NCBI GenBank assembly: GCA_009840965.1
Contig: VXMT01000159.1
Coordinates: forward strand, 1-46,441
Source: Chloroflexota bacterium
Lineage (GTDB): Bacteria; Chloroflexota; Dehalococcoidia; UBA2979
DNA length: 46,441 nucleotides
Direction of reading: 5' to 3'
Shown here piece after piece: positions 4,281 to 40,003 of the stretch. A program made the translations under genes and the position numbers. The notes below the pieces were generated by a model. It saw nothing but the letters and a program-made list of their open reading frames with translations. It ran no database searches and had not been told where the DNA came from. How positions within the stretch are numbered: the first letter of the stretch is position 1; every line of letters starts with the position of its first letter.

Positions 4281-4293
4281 GATCCCGACTCCT

Positions 4294-4668: not shown

Positions 4669-4669
4669 G

Positions 4670-4697
4670 AGTATAAGTCATGCCTACTATAAGTCAA
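4670..4697 (-). promoter_or_regulatory. Direct-repeat operator/promoter candidate of the toxin-antitoxin operon
   Basis: On the minus strand TGACTTATA occurs twice with 16-nt spacing (plus-strand TATAAGTCA at 4672-4680 and 4688-4696), directly upstream of the toxin ATG (4668). It overlaps TTGACT, TATAGT and TATACT hexamers. This is the only AT-rich patch in the area. Confidence 0.4.
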
Positions 4698-4714
4698 GTC
4701 TTATTGAGTGCCCG

Positions 4715-5740
4715 CTACGCGTCGACCCGCACGAACTTCTGCAGCGCACGCGATCCGCGGTCGATGCCGCGGTAGGTTTCGGCGAGGTCGCCGACGTAGA
4801 TGCTGCCCTGCGAGTCCACCGCGAGGCCGTGTGGGCCGATCACGTGGCCGGCCGCCTGCTGCTCGGCCGGGCAGGGCGGGATCGGCGGCTGCTCCGGGCA
4901 GGTGCAGCCCTCGTCGCCCCAGCCGGCGAGGCGTTCGCCCTGCGGGCTCCAGATGCTGATGCGGTGCAGCAGCTCGGCGACGTAGGCGTTGCCGTCCGGG
5001 CCCCAGGCGAGGTCGTCCGGCAGGTTCACGCCGGACCACTCCTCCTGGTATTCACCGTCGGCGCTGAAGACCTGGATGCGGCGGTTGGAGCGGTCGCAGA
5101 CGTAGACGCGGCCGTCCGGGCCGATGCTGACGGCGTGCGGGTTCGAGAACTGGCCAGGGCCGGAGCCCGGGCTGCCCCAGCCGAAGCGGTACTCGCCGTC
5201 CGCGCTGAAGACGTGGATGCGCGCGTTGCCGTAGCCGTCGCTGACGTAGAGGTCGCCGTTGGCGGCCACGGCCACGCGCGTCGGCTCGTTGAACGGATCG
5301 CCGCCCATGCGGGGCGCGCTCTGGTGCGGGGTGCCGAGGCTGAGCAGCGGCTTCCCGTCCGGCGTGAACTTGCGCACGGTGTGGTCGCCCGTGTCGGCGA
5401 GCCAGACGTTGCCCTCGACATCGACCGTGATTCCGTGCGCCGTCGTGGTCACGTCGTCGCCCCACCAGTCGAGGAAGAAGCCGTCCCGGTCGTAGACCTG
5501 GACCGGGCGCCGCGAGCGCGAGAAGACGAAGACGCGGTCCTCGGCGTCGACGGCGACTCCGGCGACGTCGATCCACGCCCAGCCGCGCGGCCGGCGCGCC
5601 CAGTTGTCGACGACGTAGTAGCTGTGCTCGCCGGAGCCGAGCGGCTCCTCGACGATCCCGCGGGAGCGGGTCGCAGGAGCGCCCCAGCGCCCGTCGCTGT
5701 TCGCCCAGCCGTGGTGTTCGAGCCGCGTCACGTTCACCAT
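4715..5740 (-). CDS. NHL-repeat six-bladed beta-propeller protein (peptidyl-alpha-hydroxyglycine lyase-like fold), paralog 1
   Basis: 341 aa. Repeated NHL-type blades (PHGITVDVEGNVWLADTGDH, PTRVAVAANGDLYVSDGYGN, FSNPHAVSIGPDGRVYVCDRSNRRIQVF). No signal peptide. About two-thirds identical by eye to the 10226-11254 product. Confidence 0.75.
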   Translation of the reverse strand: MVNVTRLEHHGWANSDGRWGAPATRSRGIVEEPLGSGEHSYYVVDNWARRPRGWAWIDVAGVAVDAEDRVFVFSRSRRPVQVYDRDGFFLDWWGDDVTTTAHGITVDVEGNVWLADTGDHTVRKFTPDGKPLLSLGTPHQSAPRMGGDPFNEPTRVAVAANGDLYVSDGYGNARIHVFSADGEYRFGWGSPGSGPGQFSNPHAVSIGPDGRVYVCDRSNRRIQVFSADGEYQEEWSGVNLPDDLAWGPDGNAYVAELLHRISIWSPQGERLAGWGDEGCTCPEQPPIPPCPAEQQAAGHVIGPHGLAVDSQGSIYVGDLAETYRGIDRGSRALQKFVRVDA

Positions 5741-5762
5741 CGGGGTTGCGCCTTCCGGGCCG

Positions 5763-6683
5763 CTAGCGGCCAGGCCACGGCACCCGGCGATGATCGAGGT
5801 CCGGCCCCAGCTCCGCCGGTACGCGCTCGATCAGCGCATCCAGCGTCCACGGCCCCTCGCTGTGGATGTGCCTGACCCACTCGCGCTGGTTGAGGAGGTA
5901 GACCCCCCGCCCGACCGCGCCGAAGACTTGCCCGTTGATCGCGGCGGCCTCGTCGGTCAGCAGGTAGGCGACGATCGGCGCGACGTTCGCCGGGTCCATC
6001 GCGCCGCCGATCGCCTGTTCGCTCGGCAGCGGGTCGTCCTCGCCGACCTGTCCCATCTGCTGGGCCACGATGTCGTGCATGCGCGTCGCGCCGACAGGCA
6101 CGATGCAGTTCGAGGTGATCCCGAGCGGCTCGAGCTCCTCGGCGAGGCTGAGCGCGAAGCCGATCACGCCCGCCTTCGCGGTTGCGTAGGCGACGCGGAC
6201 GCCCGCGCCGGCGAGCGCGGTGCTCGAGGAGAAGGAGATGATGGTGCCGCTGCCCTGCTCGCGCATGACCGCGGCGGCCGCCCGCGCGCAGGAGAAGTGC
6301 CCGCGCAGATGCACGCCCATCGCCCGCTCCCAGGCGTCCGGGCTCACCTCCAGCAGGCCACCGTCGACGAGAATGCCGGCGCAGCAGATCATCGCGTCCA
6401 GCCGCCCGAAGTGGTCGATGGCCGTCGCGACGATCTGCTCGCCGCCCTCCATCGTCGAGACGTCGGCGCGGCTCGGGGCGGCCTCGCCGCCCGCGTCGAT
6501 GATCTCGTTGGCGACGACCTGGGCGACGTCCTGTTCCGGACCGCCCGCGCCGTCGACGGGTCCGCCGTAGTCGGCGACGACGACCTTCGCACCCTCGGCT
6601 GCGAGCCGCAGCGCGATCCCGCGGCCGATGCCGCGCCCGGCGCCGGTAACGGCGGCCACCTTGCCCTCGAGTGGTTGCGTCAT
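5763..6683 (-). CDS. Short-chain dehydrogenase/reductase (SDR)
   Basis: 306 aa. TGAGRGIGRGIALRLAAEGAKVVV cofactor motif and YATAKAGVIGF (YxxxK). Lies 22 nt upstream of NHL paralog 1, so a likely operon. Confidence 0.85.
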   Translation of the reverse strand: MTQPLEGKVAAVTGAGRGIGRGIALRLAAEGAKVVVADYGGPVDGAGGPEQDVAQVVANEIIDAGGEAAPSRADVSTMEGGEQIVATAIDHFGRLDAMICCAGILVDGGLLEVSPDAWERAMGVHLRGHFSCARAAAAVMREQGSGTIISFSSSTALAGAGVRVAYATAKAGVIGFALSLAEELEPLGITSNCIVPVGATRMHDIVAQQMGQVGEDDPLPSEQAIGGAMDPANVAPIVAYLLTDEAAAINGQVFGAVGRGVYLLNQREWVRHIHSEGPWTLDALIERVPAELGPDLDHRRVPWPGR

Positions 6684-6717
6684 GGGGCCATACTAGAGGA
6701 GCGTGGTCCGGGCCGGT

Positions 6718-6760
6718 GTTCACCCCGTGATTGACACGTTCACCCCTTGGTAGTACGTTC
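6718..6760 (+). promoter_or_regulatory. Candidate sigma70-like promoter plus direct-repeat operator for higBA (leaderless geometry)
   Basis: TTGACA (6731-6736), 17-nt spacer, TACGTT (6754-6759). The GTG start at 6766 lies 7 nt after the -10 and has no SD. GTTCACCCC is repeated at 6718-6726 and 6738-6746, flanking/overlapping the -35. Confidence 0.4.
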
Positions 6761-6765
6761 GCCAT

Positions 6766-7059
6766 GTGGAGATTCGCTTTCGTAACCGGCGGTTGCAGCG
6801 GGCCTTCGAGCAGAGCAACCGCGCGGTTCGGGAGTGGGGGCCTGTCGTAGGAGAGCGCTACGTTAACCGAGTGCGGACATTGCGACGCACGCAGCGCGTT
6901 GAGTACCTCGACAAGATACGGTCGCTGAACCTCCATCCGTTGACCGGCAACCGAAGAGGTCAGCATGCGCTGAGGTTGACGGGGCAGGTGCGAATGATCG
7001 TCACGATCGAGGACGAGCAGGCGATCATCATCGAGGAAGTGGTGGACTACCATGAGTGA
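6766..7059 (+). CDS. higB: HigB-type toxin (plasmid-maintenance killer protein, RelE/ParE superfamily)
   Basis: 97 aa, GTG start. IRFRNRRLQRAFEQ N-terminus and LHPLTGNRRGQHALRLTGQVRMIV core are typical of HigB killer proteins. 8-nt overlap with the following HTH gene. Confidence 0.8.
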   Translation: MEIRFRNRRLQRAFEQSNRAVREWGPVVGERYVNRVRTLRRTQRVEYLDKIRSLNLHPLTGNRRGQHALRLTGQVRMIVTIEDEQAIIIEEVVDYHE

Positions 7060-7345
7060 GACGTATCCCTACGTGGAATCGGATCTTGCCTCCCACCCGG
7101 GTTCTTTGCTCGGAGAGGAGCTTGATGTCCGGGGGATGTCCCAGCGTGAATTGGCGCGGCAAATGGGACGGCCCTACCAGGTGGTGAACGAGATTGTCCG
7201 AGGGCGGAAGGCAATCACTGCGGAGACCGCCTTGCAGCTTGAGGCCGCACTGGAGATCAAGGCCCACATCTGGCTGGGCCTGCAGACGGACTACGATCTT
7301 GTGATGGCGCGCAAGAAGCTCGAGTCGTCCGTGCTGACGTCGTAA
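7052..7345 (+). CDS. higA: HigA-type antitoxin (XRE-family HTH antidote protein)
   Basis: 97 aa. HPGSLLGEELDVRGMSQRELARQMGRPYQVVNEIVRGRKAITAETALQLEAAL matches the HigA/VapI HTH pattern. Overlaps the higB stop. Confidence 0.8.
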   Translation: MSETYPYVESDLASHPGSLLGEELDVRGMSQRELARQMGRPYQVVNEIVRGRKAITAETALQLEAALEIKAHIWLGLQTDYDLVMARKKLESSVLTS

Positions 7346-7372
7346 CCGCCGGGAAATGGGGCGAGCACTCCG

Positions 7373-8290
7373 ATGAGCTTGAAGCTGGGCATCCACACCG
7401 GGCCGCAGGACCTCTCGATGGAGGAGTTGCTGCGGGTCTGGCGGCGGGCGGACGAGGCCGGGTTCCACTGGGCATCCGTCTGGGACCACTTCTACGCCAA
7501 CCCCCTGAACCTGCGCGAGGACCCCTGCTTCGAGGGCGTCGCCTCGATGGCCGCGCTGGCCGGGGCGACCAGCAACATGCGCGTCGGCTGCCTCGTCTTC
7601 TGCGCGCTGTTCCGCAACCCGAGCCTGCTCGCCAAGGCCGCCGTCACCATCGACCACCTCTCCGGCGGGCGCGCCGAGATCGGCATCGGCGCCGGCTGGT
7701 TCGAGGAGGAGTTCCGCGAGTTCGGTTACGACTTCCCGCCGCTGGGCCAGCGCTTCGAGCAGCTCGAGGAGACGTTGCAGATCGTGCGCTCGCTGTGGCG
7801 CGATCCGGTGACGAACTTCGAAGGCAAGTACTACCGGCTCCCGGGCGCGGTCGGCAGCCCCAAGCCACTCAACCCGAACATGCGCCTCTGGGTCGGCGGC
7901 AACGGCCCGAGACGGACGCCGCGGCTCGCCGCCCAGTACGCCGACGGCTACAACGTCCCCTACCAGCCGCCCGAGGTCATCCGCGAGCGGCTGGACGCGC
8001 TGGAGCAGGCGTGCGAACGCCTGGGCCGCGACCCCGCCGAGATCGGGACCAGCGTCAACCTCCGCTTCCACATGCGCGCCCACGCCGGCGACAGCGATGC
8101 CGACCCGCCGGACAACTACGTGCCGGGCTCGATCACGGGCACGGCGCAGCAGGCGATCGACCGCATTGGCGAGTACGTCGAGACGGGCGTCGGCGGCCTC
8201 AACATCGCCTTCCGGCCGCCGATCAACTGGGACGCCTACGAGGCGTTCATCGAGGACGTGCTGCCGGTCTTCCACACCGCGAGCGCCTGA
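7373..8290 (+). CDS. Luciferase-like monooxygenase (LLM) class oxidoreductase, probably F420-dependent
   Basis: 305 aa. LGIHTGPQD...AGFHWASVWDHFY N-terminus, GGRAEIGIGAGW and LWVGGNGPRRT motifs typical of the LLM TIM-barrel. Confidence 0.8.
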   Translation: MSLKLGIHTGPQDLSMEELLRVWRRADEAGFHWASVWDHFYANPLNLREDPCFEGVASMAALAGATSNMRVGCLVFCALFRNPSLLAKAAVTIDHLSGGRAEIGIGAGWFEEEFREFGYDFPPLGQRFEQLEETLQIVRSLWRDPVTNFEGKYYRLPGAVGSPKPLNPNMRLWVGGNGPRRTPRLAAQYADGYNVPYQPPEVIRERLDALEQACERLGRDPAEIGTSVNLRFHMRAHAGDSDADPPDNYVPGSITGTAQQAIDRIGEYVETGVGGLNIAFRPPINWDAYEAFIEDVLPVFHTASA

Positions 8291-8302
8291 GAGGCAGGAC
8301 TG

Positions 8303-9385
8303 ATGCTGGAACGGTTCCACGTCCCCCGCGAGATCGAGGTGCGCGTCGATCCCGGCGTGATGCGCGCGACCGTCGAGGACCTGTTCGCCGCCCTCGGCAT
8401 GCCGCGCGAGCACGCCGTGCAGTCGGCGGACGTGCTGCTCTACGCGGACATCCGCGGCATCGACTCGCACGGCGTCTCGAACATGCTGCGCTACTACGTC
8501 GACGCGATCCGGGACGGCAGCATCAACCTCGATCCGCACTGGCGCATCACCCACGACAGCCCGGCCGCCTGCACCATCGACTCCGATGGCGCCCACGGTG
8601 GCGTGATCGGGCCCGAGGCGATGCGGATCGCGATCGAACGCGCGCGCCAGTACGGCATCGGCTCGGTCGCCGTCTACAACGGCGGGCACTACGGCGCCGC
8701 CGCCTATACGGCCGCGATGGCCCTCGACGAGGACATGATCGGCGTATCGATGACCGCAGGCGGCGTCAGCGTGACGCCCACCTTCGGGGCCGAGCCGCTC
8801 GTCGGCCTCAACCCGATCGCGGTCGCCGTGCCCACGCGCGAGGAGGCGCCGTTCATCTTCGACGGCTCGATGAGCTCGGTCGCCGGGAACAAGGTGCGGC
8901 TCGTGCAGCGCCTCGGCCGCGACACGCTGCCGGGCTGGATTGCCGGCGAGGACGGCGCGCCGATCATGGAGGAGCAGCCGATTCCCGAGCCGTTCCTGAT
9001 GCTGCCCCTGGGCGGCACGCGCGAGATCGGCTCGCACAAGGGCTACGGCCTCGCCGTGATGGTCGAGGTGCTGACGAGCCTGCTCTCAGGGGGCGCGGGA
9101 GGGCCGGATCGCCGCGTCCGCCAGGCGCACCACCTGCTCGCGTACCGCGTCGACGCGTTCACCGACCTCGATCAGTTCAAGGACGACATGGACGCCTACC
9201 TGCGACGCCTGCGCGGCGCGAAGACGGCGCCCGGCGAGGAGCGCGTCTACTACGCCGGCCTGCCCGAGCACGAGGAGGAGGCGATCCGCCGCGAGCGCGG
9301 CATCCCCTACCACCCCGAGGTGATCGAGTGGTTCCGCGGCATCCTCGCCGAGCTCGGCATCGGGGACCACCTGCCTGCGCTGTAG
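8303..9385 (+). CDS. Ldh_2 family (malate/L-lactate/sulfolactate dehydrogenase type 2) oxidoreductase
   Basis: 360 aa. DSHGVSNMLRYY and GSHKGYGLAVMVEVL motifs. 12 nt after the LLM gene. Confidence 0.8.
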   Translation: MLERFHVPREIEVRVDPGVMRATVEDLFAALGMPREHAVQSADVLLYADIRGIDSHGVSNMLRYYVDAIRDGSINLDPHWRITHDSPAACTIDSDGAHGGVIGPEAMRIAIERARQYGIGSVAVYNGGHYGAAAYTAAMALDEDMIGVSMTAGGVSVTPTFGAEPLVGLNPIAVAVPTREEAPFIFDGSMSSVAGNKVRLVQRLGRDTLPGWIAGEDGAPIMEEQPIPEPFLMLPLGGTREIGSHKGYGLAVMVEVLTSLLSGGAGGPDRRVRQAHHLLAYRVDAFTDLDQFKDDMDAYLRRLRGAKTAPGEERVYYAGLPEHEEEAIRRERGIPYHPEVIEWFRGILAELGIGDHLPAL

Positions 9386-9396
9386 CTTCCTGCGCG

Positions 9397-10200
9397 TCAG
9401 CGGCCGGTGTACTCCGGCGGGCGGTTCTCCTCGTAGGCGCGGATCGCCTCCTTGTGGTCCTCCATCTGCAGGGAGAGCCACTCCAGCGACGAGGCGGGCA
9501 GCTGGCCGAGCAGCACCTCCTCCTCCAGCCGGCGGTTGAGCGACATCTTCGTCCAGCGCACGGCCAGCCGCGGGTTGGCCGCGATGCGTCGCGCGAGGTC
9601 GAGCACGTGCTCCATCAGCTCTTCGCCCGGCACCACCTCGCTGAACAGGCCGAGGCGCTCCGCCTCGGCGGCGTCGATCAGGTCGCCGGTGAGCAGCAGC
9701 TGCTTCGCCTTCTGCGGGCCCAGCAGGTGCGAGAAGATCACGGTGCCGCCATCGCCCGGCACCATCCCCAGCTTGATGTGCGAATCGCCGATTCGGGCCG
9801 CGTCGCTCGCGATCACGATGTCGCAGAACAGCGCGAGCGTCGCGCCGACGCCGACCGCGACGCCGTTGACCGCGGCGATGATCGGCGGCTCGAGGGCGAG
9901 CAGGCCGCGGATGATGTCGTGGCGCCCCGGCTTGGGGATCGCCCAGGCGTGCTCCTCGTCGCCGGTGTTGCGGTCGGACATGGCCTGGATGTCACCGCCG
10001 GCGCAGAAGGCGCGGCCCGCGCCGGTGAGCACGACGACGTGCACGGCCGGGTCGCGGTTGATCTCGTGGAAGATCCGCTCCAGCTCATCGAGCATCGGCG
10101 GGTGAGCCGCATTCAGCCGCTCCGGGCGGTTGAGCGTGACGGTGAGGATGCCCGCGTCGTCGAGCGCGATCTTCAGGAACTCGTAGCGCTCGTACTCCAT
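9397..10200 (-). CDS. Enoyl-CoA hydratase/isomerase (crotonase) family protein
   Basis: Start taken at ATG 10200 (MEYERYEFLKIALDDAGILTVTLNRPERLNA). VVVLTGAGRAFCAGGDI oxyanion-hole motif. The longer track ORF start (10293) overlaps the upstream gene. Confidence 0.8.
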   Translation of the reverse strand: MEYERYEFLKIALDDAGILTVTLNRPERLNAAHPPMLDELERIFHEINRDPAVHVVVLTGAGRAFCAGGDIQAMSDRNTGDEEHAWAIPKPGRHDIIRGLLALEPPIIAAVNGVAVGVGATLALFCDIVIASDAARIGDSHIKLGMVPGDGGTVIFSHLLGPQKAKQLLLTGDLIDAAEAERLGLFSEVVPGEELMEHVLDLARRIAANPRLAVRWTKMSLNRRLEEEVLLGQLPASSLEWLSLQMEDHKEAIRAYEENRPPEYTGR

Positions 10201-10225
10201 GGCCGCCGCCCCGCCTGCCGGACGT

Positions 10226-11254
10226 TCAATCCACCGGCACGAACTTCTGGACCGCGCGCGCTCCGCGATCGATCCCGCGGTAGGTGTCGGCAAGGTCGCC
10301 GACGTAGATGTTGCCCTCGGAGTCGAGCGTGATGCCGTGCGGGCCGATCACCATCCCCGCGTCCTGGCTCTCCGCCGGGCACTGCGTGAGCGGCAGCGCG
10401 TTCTCCGGGCACTCGCAGCCCTCGTCGCCCCAACCCGCGACGCGGCGGCCGTCCGGGCTCCAGATCGTGATCCGGTGCAGCAGCTCGGCGATGTAGACCG
10501 TGCCGTCCGGGGCGACCACCAGGTCGTCCGGCAGGTGCACGCCGCGCCACTCCTCGAGGTACTCGCCGTCGAGGTTGAAGAGCTGGATGCGGCTGTTCAT
10601 GCGGTCGCAGACGTACACGCGCTGGTTGTGGTCGATGAAGATCGCGTGCGGCGTGCTGAACTGGCCGGGCCCGTCGCCGGGGCTGCCGAAGGTGAACCTG
10701 TGGTCGCCGCCGGCGTCGAAGACGTGGATGTGGCTGTTGCCGTAGCCGTCGCTGACGTAGAGGTCGCCGTTGGCGGCGACCGCCACGCGCGTCGGCCGGT
10801 TGAACGGCACTCCGCCCATGTCCGGCATGTTGATGTGACGCCGCCCGATCGCAAGCAGCAGCTTCCCGTCCGGCGTGCACTTCTTCACGAGGTGGTCGCC
10901 GGTGTCGGCCAGCCAGACATCGCCCGCCGCGTCGATCGTGATGCCGTGCGGGGTGGTGTGCTCGTCGTCGCCCCACCAATCGAGGAAGTCGCCGTCCTTG
11001 TCGTAGATCTGGATCGGGCGGCTCGAGCGGTTGTAGACGAAGAGGTTGTCATCCGCGTCGACGGCCACGCCCGCGACGTCGCCTAGCGCCCAGCCGCGAG
11101 GACGCCGCGCCCAGTTGTCGATCACCCGGTAGCGGTGGGCGCCCTCGCCGAAGACGGTGTCGGGCGTGCGGACCCAGCGGGTGAACGGCTCCGTGAGCTG
11201 GCCGGGCACGGCGGTCGAGCGCTCCCAGCTCGTCTTCTGCACGTCGAGAGTCAC
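10226..11254 (-). CDS. NHL-repeat six-bladed beta-propeller protein, paralog 2
   Basis: 342 aa, collinear with 4715-5740, including the C-terminal GDEGCxCPE...CPAE cysteine motif. Followed 25 nt later by the crotonase gene. Confidence 0.75.
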   Translation of the reverse strand: MTLDVQKTSWERSTAVPGQLTEPFTRWVRTPDTVFGEGAHRYRVIDNWARRPRGWALGDVAGVAVDADDNLFVYNRSSRPIQIYDKDGDFLDWWGDDEHTTPHGITIDAAGDVWLADTGDHLVKKCTPDGKLLLAIGRRHINMPDMGGVPFNRPTRVAVAANGDLYVSDGYGNSHIHVFDAGGDHRFTFGSPGDGPGQFSTPHAIFIDHNQRVYVCDRMNSRIQLFNLDGEYLEEWRGVHLPDDLVVAPDGTVYIAELLHRITIWSPDGRRVAGWGDEGCECPENALPLTQCPAESQDAGMVIGPHGITLDSEGNIYVGDLADTYRGIDRGARAVQKFVPVD

Positions 11255-11282
11255 GGCCCGCGATCCTCCCCGTGATCAGTAC

Positions 11283-11313
11283 GGCGCACGCCGGCGAGTG
11301 CCGGACGTGCGCC
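11283..11313 (-). terminator. GC-rich stem-loop between the binding-protein gene and the NHL gene (terminator/attenuator candidate)
   Basis: GGCGCACGCCGGC (11283-11295), GAGT loop, GCCGG-A-CGTGCGCC (11300-11313): a 13-bp stem with one bulge. No clear U-tract on the minus-strand transcript. Confidence 0.35.
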
Positions 11314-11352
11314 GCGTGATGACCGTCCGCGCTGCTCGCGCGGCGGCTGCTC

Positions 11353-13170
11353 CTACGAGTCCTCGACCCAGATCTCCTCGAAGAGGTGCGACTTGACGTT
11401 GCCGCCTCCGGAGAGACCGAAGCGGTACCCCTGGACCCGGTTCTTCCAGAACATGAAGCCCTGACCGCGCAGGCCGGGCGCGATGTACATGTTCTCGAGG
11501 ATGTGGCGCTCGACGTTGCGGTACACCTCGCGCCGCTCCTCGGGATCGAGGATTCCGCGCTGCTGCTCGATCATCGCGGTCAGATCGGGGTCGTCGACGC
11601 CGTAAGGGTTCTGCGACCCGCCGGGGTGGAAGGTCTGCAGGAACGAGTGGTCCACCGTGTCGCCGCCGCCGCGCGTCGTCGACTGGAAGCGGAAGTCCTC
11701 GTTCGCCTCGGCGTGCTCCGTGGAGATGATCCCGCCGCCGGGCAGGATCTTGAGCTCGGTCTTGATGCCGATGGTGGCGAGCTCCGCCTGGAGCACCTCG
11801 TTCTGCACCACGTAGTTCTCGCCGGTGTGCTGGGGCACCTCCAACTCGCCGCCGACGGCGGCCTGCACCAGTTGGGCGGCCTGCGCGATGTCCCCCTCCT
11901 TGTCCGGGCGGAAGCCGGGCTGCGCAAGGATCTCCTCGTCCGGGATGGTGAAGTACGGGTCGCGACCGCCGGGGGTCGTGAGCGAGGCGAAGCCCTCGTA
12001 CTGGAACTCAGCAAGCGCCTGCCGGTTGAACACCAGGTGTACGGCCACGCGCAGCCGCCAGTCGTTGAACGGCTCCCGCTGGAGCTGGTAGACGACACCG
12101 CTGTAGCCGCGGACGGCGCCATCGGAGTGCCAGACCGTCAGGTCCTCCTCCTCCTGCAGCTGGATGCCGAAGCTGTTCGGCCAGACTCGCGCCGGACCAT
12201 CGATCTCGCCGGCCTTGAAGAGGCCGAACTGCACCGAGTCGTCCGGGATGATTCGGTACTCGACCGCGTCGAGGTAGGGACGGCCGGCACGCCAGTAGTC
12301 CGGGTTCCGGACGTAGCGCCCGCCGACGCCGTCCTCGTGCGACTCGGAGAGGAACGGTCCCGTACCGATCAGCGCGCGCGGGTCGTTCAGGTCGTCGCCG
12401 GCCAGCTCCGCCACCTCGGGTGAAACCATCGCGTTGAAGAGCGAGGCCAGCGCGTCGAGGAAGTTGGCGTCCGGGCTCTTGAGGTTGAACTGCACCGTGG
12501 TGTCGTCGACGGCATCCACGCTCTCGAGCGTCGAGAACAGGAAGGCGCGCGGCGACCACTCGCTGAAGGCGATGCGCTCGACGTTGAACTTGGCGTCCGA
12601 CGCCGTGAACGGGCGGCCGTTGACGGGCGGGATGTTCTGCCACTTCGCTGCCGGGTCCAGGTTCGCGACGAGCGTGGTGTCGCCCGTCCACTCCCAATCG
12701 GTGACGAGGTCGCCGACGGCGAGCAGCGTCTCCGGGTCCGGCACGAAGAGCTGGTTGCCGACCAGGCCCCAGTGGTCCTGCGTCTGGATCGGTGAGGTCG
12801 CGCGATGCGGATCCCACGAGGTGCGGAGGCGGAAGAAGACCGTGACGATCTCGCCGCCCCGCTTCTCCGCCTCGGGGTCCGGTGTCGGCGTGGGCGTGGG
12901 AGTCGGCGTGGGTGGCGCTGTGGCCCGTGGCGTCGGGGTCGCCGCAGGCGCGGCGGCAGTTGCAGTTGGCGTAGCCGTCGCCTCGGGCGTAGCCGCCGCA
13001 GCGGTCGGCGTGGCGGCGGGCGTGGCGGGTGCGGGCGCCGGCTCTTCGTCGTCGTCGCCGTCGCAGCCGATGAGCGCGGCTGCGGCGAGTCCCGCGGCGC
13101 CCACCGCGCCGCCTCGCAGCAGCGCGCGACGGCTGAGGATTCCTCGCATCTCGAACGGGCTGTATGGCAT
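11353..13170 (-). CDS. ABC transporter substrate-binding protein, family 5 (peptide/nickel/opine, Opp/Dpp-type), Tat-signal lipoprotein
   Basis: Start taken at ATG 13170 (SD GAGGGGGAG upstream). SRRALLRGG twin-arginine motif, then the lipobox-like LIGC. The mature domain has SBP_bac_5-like length and motifs. Confidence 0.8.
   Translation of the reverse strand: MPYSPFEMRGILSRRALLRGGAVGAAGLAAAALIGCDGDDDEEPAPAPATPAATPTAAAATPEATATPTATAAAPAATPTPRATAPPTPTPTPTPTPDPEAEKRGGEIVTVFFRLRTSWDPHRATSPIQTQDHWGLVGNQLFVPDPETLLAVGDLVTDWEWTGDTTLVANLDPAAKWQNIPPVNGRPFTASDAKFNVERIAFSEWSPRAFLFSTLESVDAVDDTTVQFNLKSPDANFLDALASLFNAMVSPEVAELAGDDLNDPRALIGTGPFLSESHEDGVGGRYVRNPDYWRAGRPYLDAVEYRIIPDDSVQFGLFKAGEIDGPARVWPNSFGIQLQEEEDLTVWHSDGAVRGYSGVVYQLQREPFNDWRLRVAVHLVFNRQALAEFQYEGFASLTTPGGRDPYFTIPDEEILAQPGFRPDKEGDIAQAAQLVQAAVGGELEVPQHTGENYVVQNEVLQAELATIGIKTELKILPGGGIISTEHAEANEDFRFQSTTRGGGDTVDHSFLQTFHPGGSQNPYGVDDPDLTAMIEQQRGILDPEERREVYRNVERHILENMYIAPGLRGQGFMFWKNRVQGYRFGLSGGGNVKSHLFEEIWVEDS
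12862..13062 (-). repeat. Low-complexity Pro/Thr/Ala linker-coding region inside the binding-protein gene
   Basis: Encodes DGDDDEEPAPAPATPAATPTAAAATPEATATPTATAAAPAATPTPRATAPPTPTPTPTPTPDPE directly after the lipobox Cys. The DNA contains short GGCGTGGG-type reiterations. Confidence 0.7.
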
Positions 13171-16227: not shown

Positions 16228-17154
16228 TCACTCGCCCCGCAGGTAGCGTGCCGCGGCGCCCGCTGCGGAGACGGCCTCGCCGACCGCCTCAGCCACGTGG
16301 CCGCCGTAGCCACGGCGCACTGCGCCCGCCGCGAAGACGCCCGGCAGCGAGGTCGCGAACTCCGCGTCCGTGACGACGTAGCCGTCCTCGCACGCCACCT
16401 CGGGAGGCAGGAACTCGCTGTTGGGGGCGGAGCCGATGAAGGGGAAGACGGCCTTGCAGGCCAGATCGCTGAGGCTGCCGTCCCCGACGCGGCGCAGCCG
16501 CACGCCCTCGACCGCCTCGCTTCCGAGGATCGCGTCGACCTCGCAGCCCCAGACGAACTCGACGTTACCGAGCCGGGAGAGCCGGGCGACGTAGTCCTGC
16601 TTCGCACGCAGCGGGCTGCGCGCGACGACGTGGACGGTGCGGCAGAAGTCGGCGAGGACCAGCGCCTCCTGCGCCGCCGCATCACCGCCGCCGATCACGG
16701 CGACGTCTTCGCCTCGAAACAGGTGGCCGTCGCACCAGGCGCACTGCGAGACGCCCTTGCCGAGCAGATCGCTCTCCCCGGGCACCCCGAGCTGCTTGAG
16801 CCGCGCGCCCGAGGCGACGACCACGGCGCGTGCCCGGTGGCGCTCGCCGCCGGCGGTCGCGACGTGCCCGCCGCCCTCGGCCGCGAGCGTCTCGACGGCT
16901 GCCTCGATGATCACGACGCCGAGCGAGCGGCACTGCTCGACGAGGCCAACGGCGAGGTCGACGCCGGAGAGCGCGCCGGCAGCCGGGTAGCCGTCGAGTT
17001 GCTCGACGGTCGCGATCTGGCCGCCGAAGAGCGGCTCGCCCTCGAGCAGCGCCGTGCTGAGGCCGCGGCGGGCGGCGTGCTGCGCAGCGGTCAGGCCGGT
17101 CACGCCGCCGCCGATCACGAGCACGTCGTACCTGCCGTGGCGGCGCTGCACCAT
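16228..17154 (-). CDS. Low-molecular-weight thioredoxin-reductase-like FAD-dependent pyridine nucleotide-disulfide oxidoreductase
   Basis: 308 aa. FAD motif VLVIGGGVTG, redox-active CAWC (canonical TrxR has CATC) and a second dinucleotide motif VAVIGGGDAAAQEAL. Starts 19 nt after the upstream gene stop. Confidence 0.8.
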   Translation of the reverse strand: MVQRRHGRYDVLVIGGGVTGLTAAQHAARRGLSTALLEGEPLFGGQIATVEQLDGYPAAGALSGVDLAVGLVEQCRSLGVVIIEAAVETLAAEGGGHVATAGGERHRARAVVVASGARLKQLGVPGESDLLGKGVSQCAWCDGHLFRGEDVAVIGGGDAAAQEALVLADFCRTVHVVARSPLRAKQDYVARLSRLGNVEFVWGCEVDAILGSEAVEGVRLRRVGDGSLSDLACKAVFPFIGSAPNSEFLPPEVACEDGYVVTDAEFATSLPGVFAAGAVRRGYGGHVAEAVGEAVSAAGAAARYLRGE

Positions 17155-17173: not shown

Positions 17174-18916
17174 TCAGCGCGTGCGTGCCGCGGCCAGCTT
17201 CGCCTCCCAGCCGGCGGGCAGCTCGATCTTCTTCGCCACCGGGTAACCGAGCCTGCCGTTGTGCGCGAAGGTGCAGGCGTTGTTGCGGAGCGGGTCGCCG
17301 CCCACGGCGATCATGAAGTCGTCGGGCTCGAAGACGATCGGCACGAGCCGGTTCGGGTCGTCCGAATCGAGGAAAACGCGCGGGATCCTCCCGAGGTTCA
17401 CCTCGGCCTCGAGCGAGCGGATCACGTGGTCGGTCCAATCTCCGAGGTAGCGCTCGAACTCCCAGGCAGGGAGCCGGGCGTGGTCGAAGAGGTACTGCTT
17501 CACGTCCTGCTTGCTCCAGCCGGCCTTCGCGATCGTCTGCGCCAAAATCGGGCTGAGCACCAGCAGCGGCCGCAGCGAGCCCATCGACTTGCCGACGGTG
17601 AAGATCAGCTGCCAGGTGTTCTGCTTGAGCACCGCGTCGGCGATGTAGGGCAGGACGCGCTCGGGCGTGTCGCCGTAGACCGAGGCCATCATGTCGCTGC
17701 CGGTGTAGCGCGCGATGGTGACGGTGTTGTCGCCTGCCTCGAAGCCCATCTCCACGCTGTTGGGCGGCCAGCCGATCCCGGCGAGGACGTCCTCGTTCTC
17801 CGCCAGTACGACGCGCCAGGTGTTGCCGAACGTCGCCTTGTCGTTCTTGTGCAGCAGGAAGCCGGCGACGTTGCGCAGGTAGAGGCGCCAAAAGCGCCCG
17901 ACCGAGGTGTTCGCCTGGAAGCCGTCGCGCAGCGCGCCCTGCTCATAGTTGAAGCCCAGCTCCTTGATGATCGGGCCGTTGAGCGTGATCAGCGTCTCGG
18001 CGCCGGGCGTGTTGCCGCTGTGCTCCACCCCGTACTCGGGATCGGCCATCGCCTCGGCGAGGGCGACCAGCACCGGCATGTACTCCGGCCGGCAGCCCGC
18101 CATCACGCCGTTCACCGCGATGCTCCAGATCGTGACGGCGCGGTTGTCCGCGAGGATCACGCCCAGCACCTCGTCCGGGTCGCGATCCGTGAAGGCGAGG
18201 AACTCCTCCACCTTCGCGATGGTCGGCGGCACGACCGGCAGGCCGTCGCTCCACTCGCACTCGGTGAAGTAGCGGTTGACCTCCTCGAAGCTGCCCTCGA
18301 AGACGATCTCGCGCGGCGAGGGCTCGTCGAACGCGGGGGCGTCCTCGGGAGCCTCGAGCAGGTTGGCAACGACCGCGTCGAGGGTCACATCGAGGACGTT
18401 TTGCTTCATCTCCTCGTCGCTCTGGTTGCCGACGTGGCCGGGCACGAGCGCGAGGGGCAGGTTCGGCAGCCCGAGGCCGGCCGAGGTCGTGCCGGCCTGT
18501 CCGATGAAGCCCTCGCAGACCAACGAGGAGGTAGGGACGCCCGCCAGCTCGCACGCCGCGCTTGCCCGCATCACGGCGGGCGTGCAGCTGCCTCAGCAGC
18601 CCATCCCGGAGATGGCGGCGTCGACCCCCAGCTCCTTGAAGCGCTGCGGGAGCGAGGCGAGAACCTCGCGCTCCTCGGCGCCGTGCGTGGTGCCGAACTC
18701 GCGCCAGCTCACGAAGCGCACGCCGGGGTAGCGGGCTTCGAGCTGCGGTTCGAGCAGGTCGAAGACCTCGTCGCCGCGGTACACGTAGTCCCAGAGCTGG
18801 GCGATCGTCTTGCCGGCCAGGGTGTCCAGCCTCGGCGCGAGCGGCATCGGCTGGAGCTGGCGCTTGCTGCGGGGCCAGACGACCGGGTAGCGGCCGCCGT
18901 CGGTGCTGTTCGTCAT
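17174..18916 (-). CDS. Probable selenoprotein: UGSC-motif protein fused to a large uncharacterised C-terminal domain (580 aa if TGA 18593-18595 is read as Sec)
   Basis: Track ORFs 18593-18916 and 17174-18574 share one frame and are separated only by one TGA plus 6 sense codons. The junction reads ...AAISGMGC-[TGA]-GSCTPAV.... A strong SD (GAGGGAG, 7 nt) precedes ATG 18916, and none precedes the downstream ORF. A stem-loop follows the TGA. Confidence 0.65.
18551..18585 (-). other. Candidate bacterial SECIS stem-loop
   Basis: mRNA +11 to +45 from the UGA is GCACGCCCGCCGUGAUGCGGGCAAGCGCGGCGUGC. Either 7 bp GCACGCC/GGCGUGC (+3 bp) or 6 bp GCCCGC/GCGGGC with apical loop CGUGAU. A GU-containing loop lies about 20 nt from the UGA. 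Confidence 0.45.
18593..18595 (-). other. In-frame TGA, candidate selenocysteine codon (residue 108)
   Basis: Plus-strand tca at 18593-18595. Flanked by a Cys codon on the 5' side and Gly-Ser-Cys on the 3' side. Confidence 0.6.
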
Positions 18917-18943
18917 GTCGTGGCTCCCTCGAACCGGCGGCAG

Positions 18944-21184: not shown

Positions 21185-21796
21185 CTACTCCCCGTTGCGC
21201 CGGGGCACCTCGAGCTGCTCCATCACCTGCTCGAAGACCGCGTACTCCTGCGCGCCTACCACGGCGTCGCGCTCGTTGAAGATGAAGGTCGGCACGCCGC
21301 GCACCCCGATCTCGCGGGCGATCGTGATGCGCTCGTCCACCTGCTCCCGGTAGCGCCCCTCGTCCAGCACCGCTCGCAGTTCGTCGCGGTCGAGCCCCTG
21401 CTCTCCGCCGATCTCAAGCAGCGTCTCGAGGTCCCCGATGTCGGCCTCGCCCTCGAAGTGCGCGGCGAAGAGCGCACGGTGCAGGCCCTCGTCGTCGTGG
21501 CCGATCTCCTGCGCGTACTCGGCGGTCTCGAGGGCGAGGTGGGAGTTCGGCGTGAAGCGTCGCCCGCGGCGGAAGGTGATGCCGGCGCGTTCGCCTCGCA
21601 GCTCCAGGTGCGTCGGCGGATCGTCCGGCTTCGTGCGCGGCTCGCGCTCACGGCCCTGGGGCGGAATCGAGGGGTCGAGCAGGTACGGCCACCAGTGCAC
21701 GTCCAGCTCGTACTCCCGCCGCAGCTTCTCGACCTCCACGAGGCCGACGTAGCACCACGGTCAGATGAAGTCGCTGACGATGATGAGTGAGGTCAT
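21185..21796 (-). CDS. Probable selenoprotein: DsbA/FrnE-like thiol-disulfide oxidoreductase with U-P-W-C active site (203 aa if TGA 21761-21763 is read as Sec)
   Basis: The track ORF (21185-21739) lacks the family N-terminus. Extending upstream in frame gives MTSLIIVSDFI-[TGA]-PWCYVGLVEVEKL..., i.e. the family CPWC motif with TGA at the first Cys. An ATG with SD-like GGAAGGCGAGGG lies upstream. The C-terminal GVRGVPTFIFN...GAQ is typical of DsbA-fold proteins. Confidence 0.7.
21729..21747 (-). other. Candidate bacterial SECIS stem-loop
   Basis: mRNA +17 to +35 from the UGA is UCGGCCUC-GUG-GAGGUCGA, an 8-bp stem (one G-U pair) with a GU-containing apical loop about 22 nt after the UGA. Confidence 0.4.
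21761..21763 (-). other. In-frame TGA, candidate selenocysteine codon (residue 12)
   Basis: Plus-strand tca at 21761-21763. Followed by Pro-Trp-Cys codons. Confidence 0.65.
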
Positions 21797-21938
21797 GACG
21801 GCCCTCGCCTTCCGGCCCGCGTCCGCTCACCTCAGTATGACGCCTCGGGATCGCGGCTGCGCGCTCGCCCGGCATCGCAAACGGCGTCGCTGCTACCATC
21901 CACGCCCCACCGCCACGGCCCGAAGGGAGCGAGAGCGC

Positions 21939-22874
21939 ATGAACTTCGGACTGTTCCTGATCGAGTCGCCGCACCGCGCGCACGTCGGGCCCAGTGGACG
22001 CCACGCCGCGCCCGGACAGGGCGCCGCGCTCACCTCGCCCGAGTACCTCGGCGGCCTCGCACGCTTCGCCGAGGAGGTCGGGTTCGACTTCGTCTCGTTC
22101 CCGGAGCACGTGGTCCTGCCCGTGGACTACGAGTCGCGCTACCCGTACCAGCAGTACGAGGGCGGCGACTTCAAGCGCTACCCCTACGACGAGACGGCGT
22201 TCCCGGAGCCGGTCACCGCCCTCACCTTCGTCGCCGCCGTGACCGAGCGGCTGGAGTTGGGCACCTCGGTGCTGATCCTGCCGCAGCGCAACCCGGTGAT
22301 CCTCGCCAAGCAGCTCGCCACCCTCGACGCGCTCTCGCACGGCCGCGTCAGCCTGACGGTCGGCATCGGCTGGCTGCGCGAGGAGTTCGCCGCGATCGGC
22401 GTGCCCTGGGAGCGCCGCGGGCGGCGCGCGGACGAGTACATCCAGGCGCTGCGCAAGCTCTGGCGCGACGAGGTGTCCACCTTCCAGGGCGAGACCGTCT
22501 CCTTCGAGCGTATCCGCTGCCTCCCGAAGCCCGCGCAGCCGGACGGCCCGCCGATCATCGTCGGTGGGCACAGCCTCGGCGCGGCTCGGCGCGCGGGACG
22601 GCTCGGCGACGGCTTCATGCCGCTCGGCCTCGGCGGCTTCGGCGGCGAGGACATCACGCCGCTGCTCGAGGCCTGGCGCGAGGCGGCGGCCGCCGCCGGA
22701 CGCGAGCAGGCGGCGACGGAGCTGCGCATGGGCGCCGCGCCCGACCTCGAGTCGGTGCAGCGCGTCGCCGAGCGCGGCGCGACGCGCATCCACTTCTCCT
22801 TCTCCGCGCCAAGCCTCGACGAGGCGAAGCGCGAGCTGGAGCGGATCGCCAACGAGGTGATCGAGCGCTTCTAG
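21939..22874 (+). CDS. LLM class oxidoreductase, probably F420-dependent
   Basis: Start at ATG 21939 (SD GAAGGGAG upstream), 311 aa. FAEEVGFDFVSFPEHVV, GRVSLTVGIGW and PIIVGGHS motifs. The 5' extension of the track ORF is rejected. Confidence 0.8.
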   Translation: MNFGLFLIESPHRAHVGPSGRHAAPGQGAALTSPEYLGGLARFAEEVGFDFVSFPEHVVLPVDYESRYPYQQYEGGDFKRYPYDETAFPEPVTALTFVAAVTERLELGTSVLILPQRNPVILAKQLATLDALSHGRVSLTVGIGWLREEFAAIGVPWERRGRRADEYIQALRKLWRDEVSTFQGETVSFERIRCLPKPAQPDGPPIIVGGHSLGAARRAGRLGDGFMPLGLGGFGGEDITPLLEAWREAAAAAGREQAATELRMGAAPDLESVQRVAERGATRIHFSFSAPSLDEAKRELERIANEVIERF

Positions 22875-28112: not shown

Positions 28113-28991
28113 CTACGCGCCGCCGACGCCGAGCGGGCGCATCACCTCCTCCGCGAAGCGCTCGATCGCCTCGATCTTCGCCTCGACGGGCGACTCCTCG
28201 CCGGCCGGTTCCCAGGCGGGGATGCGGATACCGTCGAGGCCGGCGCGGCCCAGCTCGTCCAGCACCTCCGCGGTGGGCCACTCGCGGGGCTGGATCGTGA
28301 TCTCGAAGTCCGCCGGGTCTCGCCCGTTCTCCTCGAGGTACCCGTGCAGGCGGTCGATGACCTCGGGCACCGCGGTCGCCGAGGACCCGCCGCCAACCCA
28401 GCCGTCGGCGATGCGGGTGGCGCGCCGCAGCGCGATCTCGCTGCGGCCGCCGAGCGTGATCGGGATCGGAGCGGGCGGGACGGGCGCCATCGAGACGGCG
28501 TCGAAATCGAACCACTCGCCGTGGTGCTCCACCCAGCCGCCCGCCCAGAGGCGCCGCAGCACCTCGATCATCTCGGCCATGCGGCGGCCGCGGCCGGAGA
28601 AGGCCTGCCCGGTCTGGTCGAACTCCTCGCGGCACCAGCCCGCCCCGAGCCCGGCCACGACGCGTCCCTGGGTGAGCACGGCGGCGGTCGAGATCGACTT
28701 GGCGACGGTGAAGAGGTCGCGCGCGGGCGCGATGTAGACGGCGGTCATGCAGCGCAGCGTCGTCGTGACCGCGCCCACCGCCGAGGCGAGCGCCCAGGGG
28801 TCGGGCCAGTGCGTATCGGGGCGCCAGAACGGCACGCCGTCGGCGGTGCCGGGGTAGGCGGGGACGATCTCCTGCGGGTAGAAGAGATGGTCGGGGATCG
28901 CGAGGCCCTCGAACCCGAGCCGCTCCGACGCCTGTGCGAGCGGGAGCACCTGCTCCGTCGGCATGAAGCCAGTGAACTGCCAGAATCTCAT
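28113..28991 (-). CDS. LLM class oxidoreductase, probably F420-dependent
   Basis: 292 aa. LGFEGLAIPDHLFYP, GRVVAGLGAGW and PITLGGRS motifs. Confidence 0.8.
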   Translation of the reverse strand: MRFWQFTGFMPTEQVLPLAQASERLGFEGLAIPDHLFYPQEIVPAYPGTADGVPFWRPDTHWPDPWALASAVGAVTTTLRCMTAVYIAPARDLFTVAKSISTAAVLTQGRVVAGLGAGWCREEFDQTGQAFSGRGRRMAEMIEVLRRLWAGGWVEHHGEWFDFDAVSMAPVPPAPIPITLGGRSEIALRRATRIADGWVGGGSSATAVPEVIDRLHGYLEENGRDPADFEITIQPREWPTAEVLDELGRAGLDGIRIPAWEPAGEESPVEAKIEAIERFAEEVMRPLGVGGA

Positions 28992-29057: not shown

Positions 29058-30116
29058 ATGCAATTCGGCTTCTGCTACATCCCGGACTACTACCCGGACC
29101 TGCACGGCGAGTTCCGCGACTGGTACGAGCGGCTGCTCTCCGAGTGGGCCTGGGCCGACGAACTCGGCTACGACTCGGTATGGATCGCGGAGCACCGCTA
29201 TCCGGGCTACGCCTTCTCCTCGACACCGGTCGTGTTGCAGGCAATGGCCGATCGCACGAAGCAGATTCGCATCGGGACGGCCGTGGCGCTGATCACCCAG
29301 CGGCACCCGGTGCTGAGCGCCGAGCACTGGGCCGCGGTCGACGTGCTCTCCGGCGGACGGCTCAACTTCGGCATCGGCCGCGGCATCTCGGAGTACGACT
29401 TCGAGACCGTCGGCGTGCCCTCGGAGGAGTCGCGCGAGCGCTTCGAGGAGGCGTGGGAGGTGATCCGCCGGCTCTGGACCGAGGACGAGGTGGTGCACAA
29501 CGGCAAGTACTGGTCGTTCGACGTGCACACCCTGCGGCCGCGCCCGCTGCAGCAGCCGATGCCGCCGATCTACGTCTCCGCGCTGGCGTCGCCGGAGACG
29601 TACCGCTGGGCCGGGCGCAACGGCTACCACCTGCTGGTCGCGCCGTTCCTGCTCGACACCAACGAGCGGCAGCGCGGCTTCCTCGAGATCTACCGCGAGG
29701 AGCTGGCCAACGCCGGGCACGATCCCGCCGCGTTCGAGGTCCTCGGGACGTACCACCTGAGCATCGTCGAGCGGGAGAGCCAGCTCGAGGGGGCGGACCA
29801 GTACTTCTACAACTACCTCAACTTCATCCAGAACACCGGGAAGGAACGAACCGGCGTGAAGGAGGCGCTGGCCGGCGAGGCCAACCGCGCCTACCAGACC
29901 GGCGAGGGCCTGTACAAGGACGTCGAGGCGATGCGCCGTCAGCGCACCGTGATCGGCACCCCGCAGCAGTGCATCGAGCTTATGTCGGAGCTGGCCGAGG
30001 CATGCGGCATCACCGGCTGGTCGTTCGAGATCAGCTACGGCGGCATGCCCCCCGAGATGACCCGGGACCAGATGCAGCTCTTCGCCGAGGAGGTCATCCC
30101 CGTCCTGCGCCCGTAG
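29058..30116 (+). CDS. LLM class flavin-dependent oxidoreductase
   Basis: 352 aa. ADELGYDSVWIAEHRY, GRLNFGIGRG and PPIYVSA motifs. Confidence 0.8.
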   Translation: MQFGFCYIPDYYPDLHGEFRDWYERLLSEWAWADELGYDSVWIAEHRYPGYAFSSTPVVLQAMADRTKQIRIGTAVALITQRHPVLSAEHWAAVDVLSGGRLNFGIGRGISEYDFETVGVPSEESRERFEEAWEVIRRLWTEDEVVHNGKYWSFDVHTLRPRPLQQPMPPIYVSALASPETYRWAGRNGYHLLVAPFLLDTNERQRGFLEIYREELANAGHDPAAFEVLGTYHLSIVERESQLEGADQYFYNYLNFIQNTGKERTGVKEALAGEANRAYQTGEGLYKDVEAMRRQRTVIGTPQQCIELMSELAEACGITGWSFEISYGGMPPEMTRDQMQLFAEEVIPVLRP

Positions 30117-38840: not shown

Positions 38841-38853
38841 GCGCGGCAGTCTG

Positions 38854-39888: not shown

Positions 39889-40003
39889 GTCGTGGTACTC
39901 GCCTTTGCCTTTAGTCAAGCGTAGCCACACGCCGCGTTCGCGGCCAGCCGCGCCCTGGTGGGCGCGTCCGCCACGAGCCGGCAACCTCAGTCGCGATCGC
40001 GCG

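Follow-up and report, generated by a model that had tools for sequence, protein, structure and literature searches.

A predicted selenoprotein of the UGSC family, fused to a large conserved domain and often encoded beside a thioredoxin-reductase-like flavoprotein

What is encoded by a bacterial reading frame that is open throughout, except for one internal TGA? To address this question, we analyzed a 46,441-nt stretch of the Chloroflexota contig VXMT01000159.1 (hereafter the window, whose coordinates are used throughout), in which such a frame runs on the minus strand from position 18916 to position 17174. Comparison with relatives indicates that this is almost certainly one gene, encoding a single 580-residue selenoprotein with selenocysteine (Sec) as residue 108. 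The protein, here called UGSC-X, joins an N-terminal domain of the UGSC selenoprotein family to a large C-terminal domain, X. We regard as likely the explanation as a whole—Sec108 inserted at the UGA with the help of a Sec insertion sequence (SECIS)-like hairpin, in a two-domain product linked to a thioredoxin reductase (TrxR)-like flavoprotein (Table 1). The gene adds no new family; it belongs to a known selenoprotein family, and the fusion itself is not new.

The 581 codons between 18916 and 17174 lie in one frame, with TGA at 18595..18593 (codon 108) as the single internal stop. Read through, the frame gives a 580-aa protein with the local context ...AISGMGC-U-GSCTPAVMRASAACE..., which places the TGA inside a C-U-G-S-C motif. 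An earlier reading of this DNA, made from the sequence alone (the sequence-only reading), had described two open reading frames (ORFs) in a common minus-strand frame, 18593-18916 (107 aa plus the TGA) and 17174-18574, split by one TGA and six sense codons; coordinates and translation agree with it, the six codons being GGC AGC TGC ACG CCC GCC. The strong Shine-Dalgarno sequence that it reported before ATG 18916 was likewise seen, and no purine-rich one was found 5' of either GTG 18574 or ATG 18571. G+C content at third codon positions (GC3) is 0.95 3' of the TGA and 0.88 over the upstream stop-to-stop stretch, in a window of 70% GC. Because TGA terminates 15 of the 34 predicted genes in the window, this gene included, the code is not reassigned; the genes ending at 1220-1222 and 3903-3905, cited earlier for the same point, do end in TGA. 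The public record of the exact window protein is a 465-aa hypothetical protein from a Chloroflexi metagenome-assembled genome (MAG), a length that shows that the gene was called only 3' of the TGA. Public annotations truncate UGSC-X genes systematically in this manner, to about 465 aa (464-466 aa), and label them "hypothetical protein."

How widely is the TGA conserved, and what replaces it? A search of 5.8 billion proteins returned more than 5000 relatives, most of them 464-466 aa long; to judge from these matches, the UGSC-X fusion predominates among the thousands of relatives in the database. Of the top 120, fourteen cover 98-99% of the read-through query, with lengths of 578-607 aa, and Cys stands exactly at the TGA column in 13/13 of those full-length homologues that were aligned. 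A genomic scan with one genome per GTDB species yielded at least 525 relatives, of which the best 80 loci were analyzed. TGA is kept at this codon in all 84 copies from the 80 loci (the count includes extra paralogues in loci L012, L013, and L071), with conserved protein on both sides. The loci come from Dehalococcoidia, Alpha-, Beta-, and Gammaproteobacteria, Acidobacteria, Myxococcota, and Actinobacteria (at least five phyla), and they include complete chromosomes and the cultured strains Steroidobacter flavus CGMCC 1.10759 and Novosphingobium sp. MW5. A conserved in-frame UGA is thus combined with Cys homologues at the same position, the pattern by which selenoprotein genes are recognized, and the question that the sequence-only reading had posed—whether homologues carry Cys or Sec at this column—is answered by both. 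In each of L012, L013, and L071, two Sec-form UGSC-X paralogues lie 4-10 kb apart, each with its own TGA and hairpin.

These comparisons bear directly on two other ways of reading the codon. Were the TGA a true stop, two products would result: an N-terminal peptide of 107 aa and a protein of 466 aa, the second translated from GTG 18574 or ATG 18571. The source record and most database relatives are annotated in this way (465 aa), and a split architecture does exist at locus L081, though the split falls there after the whole UGSC domain. Such a stop would, however, cut one Pfam domain in two and leave the downstream part with an internal start that lacks a Shine-Dalgarno sequence; the GSCTPA codons between the TGA and the GTG are invariant across phyla, the Cys forms are continuous over 578-607 aa, and the hairpin described below is selected only with TGA. 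We consider termination at this codon highly improbable. Still less credible is a pseudogene inactivated by mutation of its Cys codon, or a TGA that arose as an error of sequencing or assembly: the contig is metagenome-assembled and a single base separates TGC or TGT from TGA, but the TGA recurs in 84/84 independent assemblies, complete chromosomes and cultured strains among them, and neither codon bias nor protein conservation is diminished 3' of it.

Does the mRNA carry a signal for Sec insertion? RNAalifold, applied to 82 distinct 78-nt slices, gave one consensus hairpin, GC..GCCCGC[CGUG(A/U/C)U]GCGGGC..GC. In the window, its outer pairs join 18585/18584 with 18561/18560 (+8/+9 with +32/+33 relative to the UGA), its core stem joins GCCCGC (18581-18576, +12..+17) with GCGGGC (18569-18564, +24..+29), and the apical loop CGUGAU occupies 18575-18570 (+18..+23). 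On this consensus 97.4% of cells pair, vs. 22-54% when the partners are slid by 1-3 columns, and in nine sequences the closing G-C pair has become A-U, a synonymous ACG→ACA change being matched by Ala→Val on the opposite arm. Codon choice is frozen as well. Ala +6 (GCC), Val +7 (GTG), and Arg +9 (CGG) have zero codon entropy in 84/84 copies and Pro +5 is CCC in 81/84, whereas the codons of other Gly and Ala residues in the slice, no less invariant as amino acids, have entropies of 1.2-1.8 bits. Five Cys-form genes use CCA/CCT/CCC/CCG, GCC/GCG, and CGT/CGC at the hairpin codons and could form only 5-6 of the 8 pairs. Divergent Sec forms retain a hairpin: both partners of one pair are altered in L081, and another GC-rich stem stands equally far from the UGA in L082. 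Taken together, these patterns indicate that selection acts on the RNA of the hairpin in genes with UGA at this codon and not in the others. The apical loop of a bacterial SECIS lies roughly 16-37 nt from the UGA and contains G or U, and the element described here—a stem-loop directly 3' of the UGA—shows both the distance and the loop bases.

The sequence-only reading had anticipated part of this geometry. It was right to place a loop with GU some 20 nt from the UGA, but not in the extent that it gave, +11..+45; the conserved element is shorter (+8..+33). Folding of the region, which it had proposed as a check, produced the hairpin when RNAalifold was run on the relatives, while the single-sequence energy resembled that of shuffled sequences. 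A longer hairpin that RNAfold finds in the window sequence was rejected, as it is not conserved across relatives. Its central claim, a Sec-encoding UGA within a UxxC motif, agrees with the conserved TGA, the Cys homologues, and a hairpin that is selected only in Sec forms.

Which family does the protein belong to? UGSC-containing proteins were described by Zhang and Gladyshev in 2007-2008 as selenoproteins of unknown function (PMC1976440, PMC2398784). They rank among the most abundant selenoprotein families of the Global Ocean Sampling data, with 255 Sec vs. 21 Cys forms, and are more frequent in non-marine samples (PMC1976440, PMC2398784); after nearly 20 years, which include later surveys and a 2026 review, the family is still without a known function (PMC2398784, PMC13188914). 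In the window protein, PF24696 matches at 1.9e-29 (103.4 bits vs. a gathering threshold of 25) over profile positions 2-168 of 172. Because this match runs from residue 12 to residue 184, a single domain crosses the TGA, which bears out the earlier assignment to the UGSC family and, with the full-length Cys-form homologues, the earlier proposal of one fused polypeptide. The U/C-G-S-C motif is present too, with Sec and Cys alternating at one column. NCBIfam NF041046, the equivalog model of the small standalone UGSC protein, is matched by 14/14 UGSC domains tested (best E 3e-15). The window protein scores 51.7 bits in full and 55.1 bits as the domain alone, short of the cutoff of 125, which points to a divergent, fused subfamily and not to a canonical small UGSC protein. 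From the best E-value, we take all 14 tested domains to fall below this cutoff.

Weaker profile similarity extends to the Sec-containing reductases of amino acid fermentation. The model of PrdB, the D-proline reductase selenoprotein, is matched by 11/14 UGSC domains (best E 1.8e-4), and other UGSC domains match models of GrdH, GrdF, GrdB, and generic selenoprotein B. This selenoprotein-B-type similarity spans residues 88-183 (~95 residues), the Sec included. The resemblance to PrdB and GrdB may reflect distant homology, as distinct from membership in these families.

AlphaFold2 models were made of a full-length Cys homologue that is 68% identical (P0024; pLDDT, the predicted local distance difference test, 94.2; predicted TM-score, pTM, 0.93) and of the window's own X domain (pLDDT 95.7, pTM 0.94). 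In the P0024 model UGSC is an alpha/beta domain, and its U-G-S-C pair bridges the loop behind a strand and the beginning of the helix that follows: the Sec-equivalent Cys105 sits in the loop that comes after strand 97-103, and helix 108-121 begins with Cys108. The best Foldseek matches of the full-length model in the PDB are weak—the MccF N-domain, FtsZ, SIS, and flavodoxin-like alpha/beta/alpha domains—and cover ~170-200 aligned columns, which agrees with the UGSC domain in size. No thioredoxin-fold entry appears in the Foldseek listing for this model. Together with the Rossmann- and flavodoxin-like matches, this speaks against the thioredoxin-like fold that was proposed for UGSC in 2008 (PMC2398784). 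Neither PDB sequence profiles nor Foldseek returned a convincing relative of the full-length or the X model.

The gene directly downstream suggests a redox partner. It starts 19 nt after the stop of the fusion gene and encodes a protein that scores 251.6 bits against TIGR01292, below the equivalog cutoff of 343; by these profile matches it is a low-molecular-weight thioredoxin-reductase paralogue. It is a probable operon partner of the fusion gene, and with a divergent short-chain dehydrogenase/reductase (SDR) gene upstream and a convergent amidohydrolase gene downstream the operon appears to consist of these two genes. A TrxR-like homologue neighbors the fusion gene, on its strand, in 36/80 Sec-form loci, and three gene orders occur. 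It lies immediately upstream in 15 loci (median gap 9 nt) and immediately downstream in 16 (median gap 22 nt); in some loci, it follows a standalone X paralogue that intervenes. It also adjoins the fusion gene, on the same strand, in 6/6 Cys-form loci examined. In both cultured strains named above, the gene is of the Sec form and has the TrxR-like gene as its neighbor. No pathway is indicated by the remaining neighbors, which are variable and include TctC receptors, SDRs, and luciferase-like oxidoreductases.

What does the rest of the protein contribute? The X domain has no family in Pfam or NCBIfam and no PDB relative by sequence; an exhaustive search of 1.84 billion representatives matched it to 4193 clusters at E <= 0.001. 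Its hallmark motifs are W-S/T-D-G-L-P-x-x-P-P-T and N-G/A-V-M-A-G-C-R-P-E (Cys275), and nearly invariant residues include W222, D224-G-L-P227, P230-P-T232, N269, V271-M-A-G-C275, R341, and N349. The nearly invariant C275 is the only conserved Cys. Fold matches of the X-domain model to class I fumarate hydratase (E ≈ 1e-3) and to Toblerone-fold hydrolases were rejected as homology at TM-scores of 0.17-0.33. An Fe-S cluster, which the fumarate hydratase matches had brought to mind, was dropped because there is only one conserved Cys, and a role of Cys275 as a pyruvoyl-forming Cys, like that of PrdA and GrdE, was dropped because the families show no similarity and the Cys lies between two helices in the model. 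The sequence-only reading was correct in seeing a fusion to a large domain in one 580-aa frame; its hope that the fusion would provide a handle on function was not realized, since a domain without a recognizable relative gives none by itself.

X occurs in several architectures: calls truncated at the Sec codon, full fusions, and larger proteins with UGSC and repeated X. At least 15 loci have a standalone paralogue, X' (~380-405 aa), behind the fusion gene, and it keeps the hallmark motifs, with the Cys retained in 8/9 aligned sequences; in one database protein (P0078, 861 aa), X is fused to X'. UGSC together with two X-type stretches is seen in P0184 (1254 aa), P0197 (1226 aa), P0198 (845 aa), and P0078, and P0197 carries copper amine oxidase N-terminal-like repeats too. 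Two apparent standalone X proteins were rejected as such. P0230 (L082) is a wrongly called fusion protein from a distant U-G-T-C subfamily, and P0185 (L081) is a member of a split UGSC/X pair. At L081 (409-2132), the UGSC gene has its Sec TGA at 715, and its stop abuts a separate X gene. The two halves do exist as separate genes elsewhere, as the earlier reading had asked, but they are split after the whole UGSC domain and not at the TGA. At L082 (5410-7242), the distant subfamily is fused and has a U-G-T-C motif and a different SECIS-like hairpin.

Can the carriers of this gene decode UGA as Sec? In relatives, the Sec-insertion genes that the sequence-only reading had asked for are present: selA, selB, or selD lies within 10 kb of the gene in 19/80 loci and tRNA-Sec in 5/80 (5 of the 15 tRNAs found there), directly adjacent in L021 and L046. 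In L046, a Novosphingobium MAG, a selD-like gene (minus strand), selA, selB, the TrxR-like gene, the UGSC-X fusion, and tRNA-Sec form a block at 4167-11841; selA and selB stand upstream of the TrxR-like and fusion genes in L019 and L072, and L068 has selD, selA, and selB. The ORFs tested beside tRNA-Sec in the five loci included no Sec machinery, which was found upstream of the gene in other loci. The window itself probably contains a second selenoprotein gene, of the known DsbA-like Sec family. This gene reads MTSLIIVSDFI-[TGA]-PWCYVG..., with TGA where the CPWC site has its first Cys, and it supports Sec decoding in the window's own lineage indirectly. Its TGA is kept in L001, L003, L007, and L076 (three Dehalococcoidia and one Rhodospirillaceae), and the window copy has a hairpin, GGCCUC/GAGGUC with a GUG loop, 16-31 nt 3' of the TGA.

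How might the system work? Translation starts at ATG 18916; SelB bearing tRNA(Sec) would bind the hairpin and insert Sec at the UGA; with Sec inserted, the ribosome would continue to the true TGA stop at 17174. The TrxR-like flavoprotein would then pass electrons from NAD(P)H, through FAD and its CAWC disulfide, to a Sec108-Cys111 selenylsulfide, and the Sec108-Cys111 center would reduce or reductively cleave a substrate that X holds, perhaps via Cys275. The standalone X paralogue may take part in many genomes. We somewhat favor such a dedicated TrxR-like electron donor and a redox relay to Sec108-Cys111 and an X-held substrate. That UGSC is a distant relative of the Sec part of PrdB, GrdB, and GrdH, with Sec as the nucleophile in reductive bond cleavage, is a more speculative idea, which we think doubtful.

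Several observations weigh against the explanation as a whole or against parts of it. No tRNA-Sec, selA, selB, or selD was found in the 46-kb window, and no sel genes or tRNA-Sec within +-10 kb of the gene in the five closest Dehalococcoidia genomes, so that Sec decoding in this organism is inferred. Single-sequence RNA folding of 18530-18598 is no better than that of shuffled sequences (z = -0.07), which at 70% GC makes folding energy alone uninformative, and Rfam returned no matching family over the whole window. About half of the Sec-form loci are without an adjacent TrxR-like gene, some of them with full 10-kb flanks. The X domain has no known relative, which makes a catalytic role for it a guess. 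As for PrdB and GrdB, the TIGR04483 scores are 17-20 bits vs. a cutoff of 300, the GrdH, GrdF, and GrdB matches have E-values of 4e-4 to 3e-2, and no PrdA/GrdE or GrdA was found among the annotated window genes or the recurrent neighbor clusters. The weak Foldseek matches, finally, are inferred to belong to the UGSC domain from their aligned length.

The missing machinery would fit a UGA read as Cys or Trp, by near-cognate or other recoding, in a lineage possibly without Sec machinery: sel genes and tRNA-Sec are absent both from the window and from the fetched flanks of the closest relatives. Only ~46 kb of the genome is visible, however, and the frozen hairpin is identical here and in lineages with adjacent selA, selB, selD, and tRNA-Sec. 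In addition, a second gene with TGA in its active site, the DsbA-like one, is conserved in the lineage, and TGA is a frequent true stop. We consider recoding to Cys or Trp very unlikely.

A more serious competitor accepts the selenoprotein and denies the TrxR-driven reductase. The protein could instead be, for example, a peroxidase-like antioxidant, a factor for binding or trafficking metals or metalloids (Se, Hg, As), or a sensor, with the TrxR-like protein serving general redox upkeep. The loci without an adjacent TrxR-like gene (about half) and the variability of the other neighbors are compatible with such a role, as is the lack of a catalytic clue from the X domain, and the sel genes near 19/80 loci would fit selenium handling. 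Against it, the TrxR-like protein, with its score under the TrxB equivalog cutoff, is a paralogue of its own, and its gene remains tightly adjacent on the same strand in each of three gene orders and in all Cys-form loci examined (6/6), as dedicated partners typically do. We judge a function of this other kind possible, though clearly the less probable of the two, and retain the TrxR-linked reductase as our preferred reading.

Table 1. Positions of the features discussed, in window coordinates
Feature	Position	Strand	Basis
Shine-Dalgarno sequence GAGGGAG	18924..18930	-	7 nt 5' of ATG 18916; read from sequence
Predicted UGSC-X selenoprotein coding sequence, 580 aa	17174..18916	-	ATG 18916, terminal TGA 17176..17174; single frame, GC3, Cys homologues of 578-607 aa aligning end to end
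Predicted Sec codon 108 (UGA)	18593..18595	-	TGA in 84/84 copies; Cys in 13 aligned full-length homologues
SECIS-like hairpin	18560..18585	-	RNAalifold consensus, pair counts, codon entropy
UGSC domain, residues 12-184, with C-U-G-S-C motif	18365..18883	-	Pfam PF24696
X domain, residues 200-580	17177..18319	-	No Pfam/NCBIfam match; AlphaFold2 pLDDT 95.7
Thioredoxin-reductase-like flavoprotein, 308 aa, CAWC motif	16228..17154	-	Pfam Pyr_redox_2 1.2e-32; TIGR01292
DsbA-like gene	21185-21796	-	Pfam DSBA 3.6e-22; TGA 21763..21761

Other genes of the window are of separate interest. A sterol-methyltransferase-like gene at 38854-39984 (minus strand; Sterol_MT_C 1.7e-18) has as its neighbor a gene for an MMPL/sterol-sensing-domain transporter (36357-38840), with a KshA-like Rieske oxygenase gene (42101-43240) not far away; the stretch 36357-43240 may be a sterol-modifying cluster in a Chloroflexi MAG. 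ARAGORN called an 82-nt tRNA-Arg(CCG) at 42352-42433 (plus strand), inside the Rieske-domain coding region of ORF 42101-43240, where Rfam has no tRNA at gathering score; the call is probably a false positive. Five luciferase-like monooxygenase paralogues lie within 46 kb (7373-8290, 21765-22874, 28113-28991, 29058-30116, and 31323-32630), among many genes for SDRs, zinc-dependent alcohol dehydrogenases, coenzyme A transferases, and major facilitator superfamily transporters, which suggests a catabolic gene-rich region.

How does UGSC-X relate to known systems? The gene is ordinary for its family; it is the comparative context that makes an old question experimentally approachable. Through comparison, what was a motif alone becomes a testable system that comprises a TrxR-like partner, UGSC and X (fused or split, with or without X'), a SECIS, and confident structure models; the useful leads to its function are the neighboring TrxR-like gene and the weak similarity to PrdB and GrdB. 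Tentatively, UGSC-X with its dedicated TrxR-like protein, and often X', could be an uncharacterized NAD(P)H-driven selenoenzyme system with a PrdB/GrdB-related Sec module and a catalytic domain of new fold, widespread in Proteobacteria and Dehalococcoidia; where selD, selA, selB, and tRNA-Sec flank it, it may even be the main reason that the Sec machinery is kept. We put this forward as a possibility less likely than the redox relay taken by itself.

With the UGSC family (PF24696, NF041046; PMC1976440, PMC2398784), the window protein shares the U-G-S-C motif, Sec/Cys alternation at one column, a SECIS directly 3' of the Sec codon, and abundance in non-marine and aquatic bacteria. It differs in size: the NF041046 model describes a small protein of ~147 positions, whereas UGSC is here the N-terminal third of 580 aa. 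The architecture is very probably the "UGSC/Unknown_1 fusion" already mentioned in 2008 and shown in supplementary Fig. S1A of that paper (PMC2398784). Both consist of a UGSC selenoprotein and a conserved domain of unknown function that contains a conserved Cys, and both occur in aquatic organisms; Unknown_1 may be the X domain. The TrxR-like partner, the X' paralogue, and the sel-gene linkage are not mentioned there (PMC2398784), nor are the TrxR-like partner, the sel-gene linkage, and the fold as modeled here in the UGSC literature returned by one full-text search.

PrdB, GrdB, GrdF, and GrdH have in common with UGSC-X a UxxC Sec motif, weak but reproducible profile similarity, and genetic coupling to a TrxR-type flavoprotein, which in grd operons is of the thioredoxin-reductase type. 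They differ in that the pyruvoyl partner PrdA/GrdE, GrdA, and a thioredoxin gene are not near UGSC-X, in domain order, and in their hosts, which are amino-acid-fermenting Firmicutes; those of UGSC-X include cultured Steroidobacter and Novosphingobium, both aerobes, and Dehalococcoidia MAGs. Compared with the TrxB-TrxA and AhpF-AhpC pairs, the fold matches of the UGSC acceptor are not thioredoxin-like, no separate thioredoxin is nearby, and a large extra domain is fused. What these pairs share with UGSC-X is the arrangement itself—a low-molecular-weight TrxR-type CxxC flavoprotein beside a U/CxxC protein, with the redox pair at the N terminus of a helix.

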